Notes under the pieces: model-generated
Told to the model about the DNA's origin: nothing
Database searches by the model: none
Seen by the model: only the letters and a program-made list of their open reading frames with translations
Made by a program: the position numbers and the translations under genes
Shown here: positions 44,410 to 47,717 of the stretch, piece by piece
Layout: every line of letters starts with the position of its first letter
Numbering within the stretch: the stretch's first letter is position 1
Assembly (NCBI GenBank): GCA_005223095.1
Contig: NJBQ01000003.1
Span: forward strand, 1 to 63,376
Origin: Candidatus Aerophobetes bacterium Ae_b3a
Lineage (GTDB): Bacteria > Aerophobota > Aerophobia > Aerophobales > AE-B3A
DNA: 63,376 nt
Direction: 5' to 3'

Positions 44410-44522
44410 TTTTTCCCCCTTTTTTGAATAATAAGTGTCTTTGAATTTTATCTTGTTCTTGAGGTAAGTCAAGCCAATTAGATGTTTTCAAAGCTCTCTT
44501 TTACGTCATCTAATCTAATTGC

Positions 44523-44550
44523 TTGCATTCTTCTTTTATTGTGATATAAT
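44523..44550 (+). promoter_or_regulatory. sigma70-type promoter with extended -10 for the orphan three-gene operon
   Basis: TTGCAT (44523-44528), 16 nt, TGaTATAAT (44542-44550). An AAAGGAGAG RBS precedes the ATG at 44670. Confidence 0.5.
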
Positions 44551-44669
44551 GCAGCGGAATCCTCGATTCTATGACAATCTGATTTCAATAATCCTCTGTG
44601 TAGCCCAAGCGTGTGTCCAGAATGTAATGTGTGAGTATGAATTATGCTTCTTCCAAAGGAGAGTTCATA

Positions 44670-45377
44670 ATGGTCAATATTGATAATCTTAAAATCGCTT
44701 CCTTCCAAGTCTCGATATTTACCCCGACTGTCTTATTCTCTAAGAGTAAGATATTGGAAAGACTGATAGGCAGTTTTGCGGATTCTTTTGATGGTGATAT
44801 CGTTGCTATCCCCATCCCAAAAGATGCTCCAAAAGAGATTCCGAGAATAACTCTTCATAGTGCTGATGAAAAACTCAGACTGGACATTGCTGAAAGCAGG
44901 GTAAATTTGTTCAGATACCGAAAGGATGATGATGTAGGGATCGACACAAGTCAAATCCTTGATTTTTCTTTTCGTGTTATGAAAGAATACAAGGACTGTA
45001 CTCAGTCAGTAATCGGACGGTTAGCACTCGTAGTTGTAAGATTTTTGAAAAACGAGAAACCAGCTTCTACGCTGGCAAACTATTTCTGTAGAGAAAGGTT
45101 CACAAAGGAACTCTTTGACCAGATCCACGACTTTGAGATCCATTCGCACAAAAAGTATACTCTTAGAAAATTCAATATAAATAGTTGGGTTAGGTGTCAG
45201 ACTGGGCGGCCAGCGAAGGATAATCAGCCGATTATTCTGATCACACAGGACATCAATACTCTTGCAGAAGAGTTGGAGACAAGTGATTTTAGTCTTGAGC
45301 AAGTTAAGGCTTTTCTACAAGTTGCTCATAGAGAACAGGAGCAGATCTTATGCCAATACTTTTCCAAGAAAAAATAG
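44670..45377 (+). CDS. hypothetical protein A of the orphan operon
   Basis: 235 aa counted from the RBS-supported ATG. No motif I can assign. Confidence 0.6.
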   Translation: MVNIDNLKIASFQVSIFTPTVLFSKSKILERLIGSFADSFDGDIVAIPIPKDAPKEIPRITLHSADEKLRLDIAESRVNLFRYRKDDDVGIDTSQILDFSFRVMKEYKDCTQSVIGRLALVVVRFLKNEKPASTLANYFCRERFTKELFDQIHDFEIHSHKKYTLRKFNINSWVRCQTGRPAKDNQPIILITQDINTLAEELETSDFSLEQVKAFLQVAHREQEQILCQYFSKKK

Positions 45378-46129
45378 CCCCGGATGTAGACGTAGCAGAG
45401 GTTTACGACCCAGACCTGAATCCTGTCAAAGGTCCAGGTGGCACGGGGGTTTCATTATTCTTCTCCGAAGGAGAATTGGGCAGGTATTACGTTTCGTCTG
45501 TTGCTGGTGCAACATCAAGCATATCTCTTCAAATAGGACAAGAATGTATTAATGATAAGATTGACCGTTTAGCCCTTTGGAATTGGCTCGGTGGAAATAT
45601 TTCTTCTTGGACTAAACTTAATAAAGAAGAGAATGTATCAGGTGGTTCCTTGTCTTGCCGTGATCTTATTGGAGAGGGAGTAGATTTCTACGCTTTAGCT
45701 ACGAAATCTCTTTTCAATCGTTCTGATGACATCCCTGAATTCGAGTTGGCTGAGAGGTTGCGACCTGCTTTAAGAGACACGGTGGATCGTATTAAAAGTT
45801 TTGCTTCTCTGGGTGACAATTGGGATTCCTATGGTGCAGAAGCCATAGAAGGATCGACAATAGTCAAAGCTATCCGTTTTTTTTCAATTATCGTTTCTAA
45901 GCTACCCAAGGACGCTGCTCTTCCTTTTGTTGCCCCGGCGTGTGATGGGCACATTCATTTTGAATGGGAAATGGTCTTCAAGGCGTTGAAGCTTTCCATT
46001 CCAAAAGAAGAGAATACTCCGTGGGAGTATCTGTCAATCGACAAGACTTCGAAAAAGACAAGGCGGGAGCCAGGGAGAGCGCTCAATATGGGAAAAATGG
46101 CAGACATTGTACTCGATTGGATGAGTTAA
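45350..46129 (+). CDS. hypothetical protein B of the orphan operon
   Basis: AGGAG lies 8 nt before the ATG. Overlaps A by 28 nt. The C-terminal half has a GDNWDSYGAEAI...DGHIHFEW pattern that I associate only loosely with small phage or immunity-type proteins. Confidence 0.6.
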   Translation: MPILFQEKIAPDVDVAEVYDPDLNPVKGPGGTGVSLFFSEGELGRYYVSSVAGATSSISLQIGQECINDKIDRLALWNWLGGNISSWTKLNKEENVSGGSLSCRDLIGEGVDFYALATKSLFNRSDDIPEFELAERLRPALRDTVDRIKSFASLGDNWDSYGAEAIEGSTIVKAIRFFSIIVSKLPKDAALPFVAPACDGHIHFEWEMVFKALKLSIPKEENTPWEYLSIDKTSKKTRREPGRALNMGKMADIVLDWMS

Positions 46130-46135
46130 AAGAAC

Positions 46136-46552
46136 ATGCAACAAAGTGAATACATTCCTGATAACCATGATCTTTATCGGAGAGCCTTACCAATTCAATA
46201 CAACAAGACGACAGGGAAATTCACCCCAGCCACTTTCACACTAAGAAAAAAGGAGATAAGACGTGGCCTTGGATTGTCGGTTAATTGGTCGGAGTATAGT
46301 ACTCCCGAAGAAACATCTGTGGATCCGCATCCAAATTACGGGGGCAGAAGATTACTCGTGGGAGCACTAAAGGCCAGGATCCCACGTCAACAAGACTTGA
46401 AAGTTGTTCATACTCCCAACCTAGATAATCCTGCGCACAGCGAGATAAGAGGACGGAGACTGATTGACTCCCACTCCCGGTTGTTGGTTGCTGATATCCT
46501 AGCCGAAAACTGCAGACCCCTAATCACACGTATCGAGGATTCCAATCTTTGA
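46136..46552 (+). CDS. hypothetical protein C of the orphan operon
   Basis: 138 aa, starting 6 nt after B. Has LSVNWSEY and DNPAHSEIRG motifs. No family assigned. Confidence 0.55.
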   Translation: MQQSEYIPDNHDLYRRALPIQYNKTTGKFTPATFTLRKKEIRRGLGLSVNWSEYSTPEETSVDPHPNYGGRRLLVGALKARIPRQQDLKVVHTPNLDNPAHSEIRGRRLIDSHSRLLVADILAENCRPLITRIEDSNL

Positions 46553-46703
46553 GAACAATGCTAGTTTTGTTTTCTTAGAATCAGTACCATTCAAAATTGA
46601 TCGGTTCATATGCCGTCACGTCAGCAGAGGAGTCCGCCTGCTATCAGATGAAGAGCATTCCTCTTAGACTCTTGCGAGAAAATTAGATGCTGCTCCAACT
46701 ATT

Positions 46704-47094
46704 CTATATATTTCCTTCGACAAACTGAGCATAAATCCTCATAGTCAGCAGACTCTTGTATCCAAGAAGAGTCTGGATAACCTTCCAGACAGTCCTCTTA
46801 CTCATGTCATGGTTAGGGGAAACACAAAAAGCATCCCGTCTTAGATATTTAGGATATCTATCCGCTAAACTGTGACAGTCGATTTCCTTCATCGTCTCAC
46901 CCACAGTAGGCTCAGAGTAGTTCATCAATCTTTGTCTCTTCCGGATTCCATATGACCACCCAGTACGCCATCTTGAGGTCACAATCTACCATTAAAACAT
47001 TTTGGGGTTTAAGCGTTAAAGCGTGTGAGAGATTAGCTGCTGTTATGGTTTTGCCTGGTCCACCCTTGAAGTTCAAAATAGCTATTTTATTCAT
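46704..47094 (-). pseudogene. ParA-like ATPase N-terminal fragment running into a tyrosine-recombinase C-terminal remnant
   Basis: MNKIAILNFKGGPGKTITAANL is a deviant Walker A. The reading frame collapses after about 60 codons. The downstream overlapping frame ends in HDMSKRT..IQTLLGYKSLLTMRIYAQF, which resembles the catalytic tail of a tyrosine recombinase. Confidence 0.5.
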
Positions 47095-47126
47095 CTAGTG
47101 ACCTCTTGTCCTTTGGTTCGGCCGTT

Positions 47127-47411
47127 GTGACCTGCCCCCATTAATAGTGCCACTTCTTACAGTTAGAGTCAATGAAATGATGGCCTCCGGAGCAGGTAGT
47201 CGGTAATCAAGAGTATGGGGGCCTCATTTGATTGCAGTCTTTACGCTACTCTTCAATTAAGAGACTTGCTTAAGCTAAAGTTATAAATATTTCAGGAGCC
47301 TATCTCTTAGCTTACCGTTGAGTGATTATATGTGATATTATTCCCCAGAGCCGGATGTTCCCTGACAATACACTGAAGGGGACTACTAGGCCAAATCTCA
47401 GCACTTGTCAA
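47127..47411 (-). repeat. E1-derived unit (promoter module, about 170 nt of unrelated insert, right-end hairpin module)
   Basis: On the minus strand: TTGACA (47411-47406), 17 nt, TAGTAG. 47198-47127 matches the 877-946 and 4102-4173 hairpin module (..ATTAATGGGGGCAGGTCAC). Confidence 0.45.
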
Positions 47412-47717
47412 CGAAGTTTTGCACGAAATCAACCCTATACATCTTGAGAAAACATTCTGAATTCGCAATACCTGGATTAACAACAGCTTACATAAGAGGA
47501 GAAAGCTCCATTTTAAAAATCACAAATTTTATAGATAAGCTATCGGTACCTTTTCATAATTTATGTGAAAGCTCGAGAATAGCTTCTGCTCAACAGTTGT
47601 AAAAAGCTAATCTCTTATATCACCATTTTCCTGCAAAAGCTAGCTGTCAATCTGGATTTTGGGGAGTTTTGTGAGCACTCAACACTTAGAATAAGACTTG
47701 TAAGCGGTTGAGCTTAG

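Follow-up and report, generated by a model that had tools for sequence, protein, structure and literature searches.

In the DNA of Candidatus Aerophobetes bacterium Ae_b3a analysed here (GenBank assembly GCA_005223095.1, contig NJBQ01000003.1, positions 1 to 63,376 of the forward strand; this whole stretch of 63,376 nucleotides is referred to as the window), three tightly packed genes designated A, B and C appear to constitute a three-gene extension of PDC-M32, with a first gene that was previously undescribed. PDC-M32 is a two-gene phage defence candidate (FAM_01821>>FAM_00608), i.e., one of 145 untested candidates proposed because their cassettes lie within BREX, DISARM, type I restriction-modification (RM) and Hma systems (Payne et al. 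2024, bioRxiv 10.1101/2024.01.29.577857); the sole other paper found with the term merely reports a PADLOC match. The operon is conserved as a unit across phyla, far beyond chance. It is read here as a three-part conflict module that resembles a toxin-antitoxin system and would act by abortive infection or addiction; this reading is assigned a probability of about 0.5, and far less certainty attaches to the specific roles of A.

Gene A (44670-45377) is an open reading frame (ORF) of 235 amino acids (aa), gene B (45350-46129) encodes 259 aa and overlaps A by 28 nucleotides (nt), and gene C (46136-46552) encodes 138 aa and starts 6 nt past the B stop codon; all three are read on the forward strand. 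The first-pass annotation of this DNA had given precisely these ORFs, with the same overlap and gap, and independent gene callers also predict proteins of 235, 259 and 138 aa on near-identical metagenome contigs. A, B and C are predicted to be one co-transcribed three-gene unit.

The relationship with PDC-M32 can be followed through both B and C. Residues 119-233 of B match the PADLOC profile PDC-M32A (PDLC04575; E-value (E) 5.1e-8), the match being partial and confined to profile positions 232-345 of 375, and the N-terminus of the window's B is unrelated to the profile. Thirteen close homologues of B were found, and searches with B alone against Pfam, NCBIfam, PHROGs and PDB sequences were uninformative. 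Within its core, GDNWDSYGA...FEW, the residues N157, W158, D159, S160, Y161, A163, P192-P196, G200 and W206 are invariant, and the invariant residues are mostly aromatic, Pro or Gly. The C-terminal motif block ending in FEW, to which attention had already been drawn, is indeed the conserved core of B and lies in the region that matches PDC-M32A. As for C, an exhaustive profile search extended its 16 close homologues to 492 representatives at E<=1e-3, and 144 of these 492 were aligned for conservation analysis and PADLOC scoring; 63 of the 144 match PADLOC PDC-M32B (best E 4.4e-11). The gene order (PDC-M32A-type followed by PDC-M32B-type) and strand are the same as in B-C. PDC-M32 was, however, described as two genes, whereas here a conserved A precedes B, both in the window and in 25/25 loci located through A; moreover, the window's C is too divergent for a direct PDC-M32B match, and no defence system surrounds the copy in the window. 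The earlier statement that none of the three proteins can be placed in a characterised family was thus too sweeping: A matches no Pfam, NCBIfam, PDB-sequence or PADLOC family, but B and the C family match the candidate families PDC-M32A and PDC-M32B, respectively.

The conservation of the cassette is evident from the A side. Gene order was examined in 25 loci located through A (related loci are given L numbers below), which are distributed over at least nine phyla: Acidobacteriota, Omnitrophota, Desulfobacterota, Planctomycetota, Cyanobacteria, Gemmatimonadota, Chloroflexota, Tectomicrobia and Myxococcota. In all 25, a B-like gene of 180-300 aa follows A at a distance of -59 to +26 nt, and a third small gene is present after B wherever the downstream DNA is present and intact. 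The gene-neighbourhood check that had been proposed for co-occurrence of the three genes therefore came out in favour of a unit. The operon is not the orphan it was taken for, with more than 125 homologues of A, the 492 representatives of the C family and cassettes in at least nine phyla. The third gene belongs to the window-type C family in 16 loci, as judged by BLAST clustering with the window's C. It is replaced by a Fic/Doc-like gene with the motif HPYxNGNGHxxRF in four loci (Pfam Fic, best E 5.5e-5), by a HEPN gene in one (E 9e-4, which is below Pfam's cut-off) and by a DUF7689 gene in one (E 5e-43); in three loci (L014, L018 and L028) it is truncated, lost or ambiguous. Sequence clusters of B co-vary with the effector type, and the exchange at position 3 appears to be the effector-swapping pattern of conflict systems. 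The distribution over these phyla is patchy, and the neighbourhood is not conserved. Two of the loci look like decaying copies in which A is split into two ORFs, namely L016 8001-8705 from Iningainema tapete (165 and 54 aa) and L018 388-1110 (150 and 76 aa); L018 has a periplasmic-binding-protein gene in place of the effector.

A second view is provided by C. A degenerate DNA pattern for the motif V-x-H-x-P-x3-N-x-A-H-S-x-I-x-G was used to choose metagenome loci independently of A and B, and 76 C-family genes were confirmed by this motif scan. A B-type gene lies immediately upstream in 68/76; seven of the remaining eight C genes have no upstream sequence, and the eighth (L063) is a decayed fragment. 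Hence no intact C was seen without B, as expected of a toxin and its obligate neutraliser. An A-family gene was found upstream in only 8 of the 47 C loci with enough upstream DNA. Most of the remaining B-C loci have a recurrent co-directional gene of another family directly upstream of B, as revealed by clustering of the upstream ORFs, which rules out a two-gene core with an optional A. The proteins at position 1 comprise several unrelated families of approximately 220-250 aa, and hhalign detected no resemblance between the other position-1 groups and A (the probability was below 4% for the COMMD-like group described below). One family of approximately 250 aa, which may be TIGR04255-like, precedes a short B in five loci (L035, L043, L048, L050 and L100; e.g., L043 2217-2969); it has the motifs NAPLKEVxFELHW (N-terminal) and GPGVFTVN and no PDB match. 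The largest of the other position-1 groups (12 loci from five deep lineages) matches the COMMD-like protein MBK5214510 (PDB 9q6a) over its full length with E 2.3e-37. These loci include L054, L057, L060, L061, L062, L070, L084, L087 and L094; for example, in L057 the COMMD-like gene lies at 1177-1851 on the reverse strand, with B at 588-1172 and C at 190-612. The function of COMMD-like ring proteins in bacteria is stated to be unknown in the paper describing them (PMC13392464, 2026), which associates myxobacterial COMMD-like genes with type VI secretion-like clusters; in word searches of its text, operons, toxins and defence were not mentioned. In the loci considered here, the gene of the COMMD-like protein sits immediately upstream of B-C, just where A lies in other cassettes, but COMMD-like proteins are unrelated to A in sequence, and none is encoded in the window.

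In the sampled metagenome loci, the length of the N-terminal extension of B tracks the position-1 family. B comprises 212-269 aa when A is upstream and 132-224 aa when it is not, and the short B proteins match only hidden Markov model positions ~108-248 and thus only the C-terminal domain of the window's B. The NWD domain begins at residue 89-150 of B in loci with A, at residue 44-105 in those with COMMD-like proteins and at residue 21-41 in those with the possibly TIGR04255-like group, and an extension of 89-150 residues occurs only where an A-family gene is upstream. In the window, the variable N-terminal part of B corresponds to approximately residues 1-115 (45350-45694, forward strand), whereas the C-terminal NWD...FEW domain (approximately residues 116-259; 45695-46129, forward strand) is PDC-M32A-like and constitutes the putative C-binding, neutralising domain. 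The possibility that PDC-M32A is itself an A-B fusion was considered and ruled out, as the A family has no PADLOC match and no fusions of position-1 proteins with B were found.

Homologues of A extend down to approximately 30% identity and come from Brocadiales, Omnitrophota, cyanobacteria, Desulfobacterales, Acidobacteriota and other groups. Neither A alone nor 75 members of its family gave an informative match in Pfam, NCBIfam, PADLOC or PDB sequences (the 75 had scattered chance matches in Pfam and NCBIfam only), and the two PHROGs that A matches, 24110 and 22817, are both of unknown function. The AlphaFold2 model of A, built on a 75-sequence alignment, reached a predicted local distance difference test (pLDDT) score of 96 and a predicted template modelling score (pTM) of 0.91 and shows two tandem beta-alpha-beta4-alpha repeats. 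When this model was compared with the PDB using Foldseek, the top 29 matches were TATA-box-binding proteins (TBPs), 26 of them at E<=1e-3, with a probability of ~1.0 but a template modelling (TM) score of only 0.25-0.46 and a sequence identity of 8-12%; against a viral structure library, the best match had a TM score of 0.54-0.61. A TBP-like double-repeat fold can thus be predicted for A with confidence. The model shares the tandem repeats with TBP but differs in the low TM score, in the absence of a relationship at the sequence level and in a predicted conserved surface that is partly acidic. Because invariant and near-invariant polar residues (R117, E156, H158, N171, S172, W173, R175, Q193, D194 and N196) are located on the strands of repeat 2, the model suggests that the sheet may be a binding or catalytic surface. 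Assignment of A to TIGR04255 was abandoned, since none of the 75 A-family members matches the NCBIfam model at E<=0.1, and Pfam gave no match of A to SecB.

The C family consists of free-standing proteins of 103-241 aa (median 128). No signal peptide was detected in C, nor any PAAR, Rhs, LXG or other trafficking domain. Among the 144 aligned representatives, only S48 (codon 46277-46279 in the window, forward strand) and H101 (codon 46436-46438, forward strand) are invariant, with R16, F34, V90, H92, P94 and N98 being near-invariant; the window's C keeps every family-invariant residue. C looks like an enzyme, with S48 and H101 as a candidate active site assisted by R16, H92 and N98. These two are the Ser of LSVNW and the His of DNPAHSEI, i.e., residues of the very motifs that the first-pass annotation had considered catalytic; their standing as the sole invariant residues agrees with that suggestion, and catalysis itself is a prediction from conservation. 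Two more specific assignments were tried and rejected. C could not be supported as an HNH/His-Me nuclease (VxHxP...NxAH), since the H-N-H spacing of 6 and 3 residues is too short compared with the longer spacing of the canonical HNH motif and no profile supports it, and it could not be supported as an R-S-E ADP-ribosyltransferase (YRR ... LSV), since there is no conserved Glu.

Comparison with close relatives revealed that the three genes do not diverge together. Relative to the window, L001 has nucleotide identities of 97.9% in A, 97.2% in B and 82.8% in C, corresponding to protein identities of 97%, 96% and 69%, whereas in L069 the protein identities are 86% for A, 73% for B and 91% for C (the regions compared for C are 46136-46552 in the window, 3029-3427 in L001 and 1595-2011 in L069). 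Between the window and L001, C has 41 codons with amino acid changes against 12 with synonymous changes only, while its first 20 codons are identical, so that an apparent breakpoint lies near codon 21 (~46196). In A and B, synonymous-only and amino acid-changing codons are about equal in number (7 of each in A, 10 against 11 in B). Such incongruent identities point to allele exchange within the cassette, which is common in conflict systems.

The signals expected of an operon are found upstream of A. A promoter at 44523-44550 (forward strand) comprises a -35 hexamer TTGCAT (44523-44528), a 16-nt spacer and an extended -10 element TGaTATAAT (44542-44550), and it is followed by a 5' leader of approximately 120 nt (44551-44669, forward strand) that contains the ribosome-binding site (RBS) AAGGAG (44656-44661), 8 nt ahead of the ATG of A. 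B has its own AGGAG ahead of its ATG. Both translation signals had been noted before and are present. The promoter had been called strong and near-consensus; its elements exist and are kept in relatives, but the -35 hexamer agrees with TTGACA at only 3/6 positions, so the promoter is not near-consensus at -35, and for the same reason it was not listed by a consensus scan. By itself, TGNTATAAT is not significant, with 5 occurrences in the window where 2.9 would be expected by chance. The promoter is nonetheless credible because it is intergenic, 120 nt upstream of A, because it is kept together with the RBS in L001 (91% nt identity) and because extended -10-like elements recur 5' of gene A in L081, L042, L017, L007, L014 and L074. 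RNA structure in the leader was not significant (z = +1.2), and an Rfam search of it gave no match. Unlike A and B, C lacks a good Shine-Dalgarno sequence, and its translation is probably coupled to that of B. A repeat search also detected an imperfect palindrome, CAATTAGAT-N29-ATCTAATTG (44475-44521, no strand), which abuts the -35 hexamer. Its left arm falls at the boundary of the segment that L001 has in common with the window and is itself not conserved there; the palindrome may be an operator, for which the evidence is weak, or may mark the left edge of the mobile block.

The DNA common to the window and L001, its closest relative, is only 44482-47114 (91% nt identity), with unrelated flanks. 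This block contains the promoter, A, B and C, followed by debris of a mobile element that travels with the cassette (46704-47094, reverse strand), i.e., a 92-aa ORF and a 60-aa N-terminal fragment of a ParA/MinD-type protein with its Walker A motif. The operon had been placed at the boundary between core genes and an island with ParA and tyrosine-recombinase remnants. Indeed, the ParA fragment (46912-47094, reverse strand) is genuine, as an identical ORF has Pfam AAA_31/CbiA matches; however, the claimed recombinase remnant (the 92-aa ORF, 46704-46982, reverse strand) has no PDB match, and its identity was not confirmed. Since only 44482-47114 is shared and housekeeping genes lie on both sides (an alpha/beta-hydrolase-like gene on one, a HAD hydrolase gene, a PNP_UDP-family gene and ClpB on the other), the island amounts to a block of 2.6 kilobases (kb) and not to a large defence island. 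The ClpB protein clusters at 90% or more with Candidatus Aerophobetes proteins from metagenome-assembled genomes of marine sediment, which agrees with the origin of the DNA. The G+C content across the cassette is not atypical, no transfer RNA (tRNA) integration site was found in the window, and a search for an empty site or a related contig without the cassette found none. The approximately 600 nt before the HAD hydrolase gene (47100-47717) contain no convincing ORF, tRNA or Rfam match.

Within this context, it is reasonable to propose the following scheme, for which we infer the toxicity of C, its neutralisation by B, an A-B contact, a trigger and an anti-phage role from the genes. One promoter would transcribe A, B and C, with coupled translation. 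C would be a small cytoplasmic enzyme-like toxin acting through its candidate active site (S48 and H101 with R16, H92 and N98), and the C-terminal NWD/FEW domain of B would bind and neutralise it. The variable N-terminal extension of B would couple B to the position-1 protein, and A might be an accessory sensor, scaffold or regulator that decides whether B holds C inactive. The general architecture might then be described as X-B-C, in which position 3 would be the effector (with exchange seen at least in A-type cassettes), position 2 would be bipartite, its C-terminal domain going with the effector and its N-terminal segment with position 1, and position 1 would be one of several unrelated proteins. 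A more ambitious version, in which swappable position-1 platforms (TBP-like A, COMMD-like rings and others) gate the toxin via the bipartite B and C represents a new toxin fold or chemistry, is put forward only tentatively.

The proposal that the operon is a novel toxin/immunity or defence candidate is thus strengthened in part, by its conservation as a unit, the obligate B-C pairing, the swappable effector and the homology to PDC-M32, and weakened in part, by the poor defence-island setting and by the fact that the operon is no orphan. Several observations weigh against a conflict module of the kind described. The window's own C does not match PDC-M32B at E<=1, so that the link runs through its family. 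C has no match in Pfam (chance matches only among the 144 members), NCBIfam, PHROGs or PDB and no recognisable toxin fold, and AlphaFold2 applied to C with its 16 close homologues reached a pLDDT of only 44, the best Foldseek match to that model being an uninformative E of 1.8. B lacks an HTH (helix-turn-helix), RHH (ribbon-helix-helix), AbrB or Phd DNA-binding domain in Pfam and NCBIfam, unlike typical type II antitoxins. The N-terminal extensions of B have no detectable similarity between subgroups and no shared motif that would mark an A-binding module, and fusions of A or another position-1 protein with B were looked for and none was found. It is also unusual for a co-evolving toxin-antitoxin pair that B is nearly unchanged relative to L001 while C differs by 31%; the allele exchange raises the question of whether a near-constant B could neutralise both C alleles. 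As regards genomic setting, the 133 ORFs flanking 29 A-type loci, surveyed with Pfam, are mostly housekeeping genes. A, B, C and a C consensus gave no matches among PLSDB plasmids and GenBank phages other than a weak A-like one in a Leptospira LE1-like record, and IMG/VR yielded no A and a single B-C module, which amounts to near-absence from sequenced plasmids and phages.

Other explanations of the same data have to be considered. B-C might be an ordinary two-component addiction pair, with A being only a transcriptional autoregulator that binds an operator by its TBP-like saddle and with no phage sensing involved. The A-B-C order fits the regulator-antitoxin-toxin order of omega-epsilon-zeta and PaaR-PaaA-ParE, a separate regulator would make sense because B has no DNA-binding domain, and the predicted fold of A is that of a DNA-binding protein; the palindrome abutting the -35 hexamer and the plasmid-type ParA debris accompanying the cassette would also suit an autoregulated addiction operon. 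Nonetheless, the A sheet carries conserved acidic residues (E156, D194 and E200) that are untypical of a DNA-binding face, its TM score to TBP is low, and the left arm of the palindrome is not conserved in L001. Autoregulation would in addition leave unexplained why the extra 90-145 residues of B occur only with A and why ring-forming COMMD-like proteins are found at the same position elsewhere, which makes this explanation rather doubtful. The swappable effector position and the fast divergence of C alleles are reminiscent of inter-bacterial (polymorphic or contact-dependent) systems, in which the toxin C would be exported, B would confer immunity to it and A would serve its export as adaptor or chaperone, and the association of myxobacterial COMMD-like genes with type VI secretion-like clusters (PMC13392464) points in the same direction. 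However, C is free-standing, with no signal peptide or trafficking domain, the usual order is reversed, in that the putative immunity gene precedes that of the toxin, and the 25 most frequent Pfam families of the 133 flanking ORFs include no secretion-system genes. An inter-bacterial pair therefore appears decidedly improbable.

It might also be argued that there is no conflict system at all, C being a small enzyme, B its regulatory or assembly partner and A a ligand-binding protein in a housekeeping, stress or small-molecule pathway. This would agree with the mainly housekeeping neighbours, the pocket-like patch of conserved polar residues in A, the rarity of the genes on plasmids and phages and the native G+C content. 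It would be difficult to reconcile with a patchy distribution over at least nine phyla in no conserved neighbourhood, with the replacement of position 3 by Fic/Doc-like, HEPN or DUF7689 genes, with the existence of pseudogenised copies, with the mosaic identities among the three genes and with the fact that cassettes located inside defence systems served to define the family that B and C match; thus, a non-conflict role is considered unlikely. Finally, the 2.6-kb block with its truncated ParA and other debris could give the impression that the copy in the window is decaying and non-functional, as the remnant of some mobile element. Yet the three ORFs are intact, A and B have 97% and 96% protein identity to L001, C retains all family-invariant residues, and the promoter and RBS are conserved, all of which renders this last explanation highly improbable.

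With the tripartite conflict module as the preferred reading, A-B-C can be compared with several known systems. Tripartite toxin-antitoxin-chaperone (TAC) systems combine a SecB-like chaperone with HigBA, MqsRA or HicAB, and CmdTAC is another example. A-B-C shares with them the three genes, an accessory protein that occurs with different toxin-antitoxin pairs and an extra antitoxin segment found only together with the accessory protein. It differs in that A is TBP-like and no SecB-like third component is present, in that the extension of B is N-terminal and not C-terminal and in that A is first in the operon; given the opposite terminus, the extension found only with the third component is an analogy only. 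Omega-epsilon-zeta and PaaR-PaaA-ParE are three-component toxin-antitoxin operons of regulator-antitoxin-toxin order, with an antitoxin that has no DNA-binding domain. The gene order of A-B-C is the same and B likewise has no such domain, but neither an RHH or HTH regulator nor a zeta kinase or a ParE toxin domain could be detected here. As in type II toxin-antitoxin systems, B and C are small, adjacent, co-directional genes that always occur together (68/76, the rest being decayed or without upstream DNA), whereas the DNA-binding domain of a type II antitoxin is missing from B. Neither does the pair resemble polymorphic toxin-immunity systems, since C is a stand-alone protein of 138 aa with no domain match and its partner gene is upstream. 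In principle only, there is a likeness to PanA/DUF4065 (Panacea), a hyperpromiscuous antitoxin domain combined with many unrelated toxin domains (PMC8832971), as the A family likewise pairs with C-type, Fic/Doc-like, HEPN and DUF7689 proteins; there is no sequence relation, A is a separate gene and not an antitoxin domain, and the toxin-specific part would reside in B.

All of the evidence comes from comparative genomics in uncultured lineages and provides a lead, not a result. If C is indeed a toxin and B its neutraliser, this would offer a first mechanistic handle on PDC-M32, which would usually be part of a three-gene unit whose first gene had been missed. The A family would then constitute a new kind of accessory component, with four or more unrelated types of effector as partners, and with C a further family of toxins, centred on a Ser/His site and of no known fold, would be added. 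If, moreover, the tentative platform version is correct, bacterial COMMD-like proteins would gain their first functional context (conflict or immunity), which is a testable hypothesis.

The classic defence-island setting claimed by the first-pass annotation was not borne out, since housekeeping genes flank the cassette in the window and at most related loci, and few loci lie beside RM, abortive-infection (Abi) or toxin-antitoxin genes. This minority comprises a type I RM system accompanied by Mrr and Gp49/HTH genes (L003), AbiEii (twice), AAA_21/AriA-like (twice), DUF1016-SNase (twice) and ParE. The clearest defence-island instance among the loci found is L003 (1-9568), in which A-B-C has a complete type I RM system (HsdR, HsdM and HsdS) on one side and an Mrr-like gene with a Gp49/HTH pair on the other. 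The B-C module of IMG/VR is located on a viral contig (L157, 1320-2330) with no A-family gene. In the region 3736-5429 of L030 (Leptospira phage or plasmid KF114877), a distant relative of A (E 2e-14) is followed by unrelated ORFs of 99 and 216 aa and adjoins an HxsABCD radical-SAM cluster. One metagenome contig (L055) carries two C-family genes, at 268-642 and 2533-2679, which lie 1.9 kb apart.

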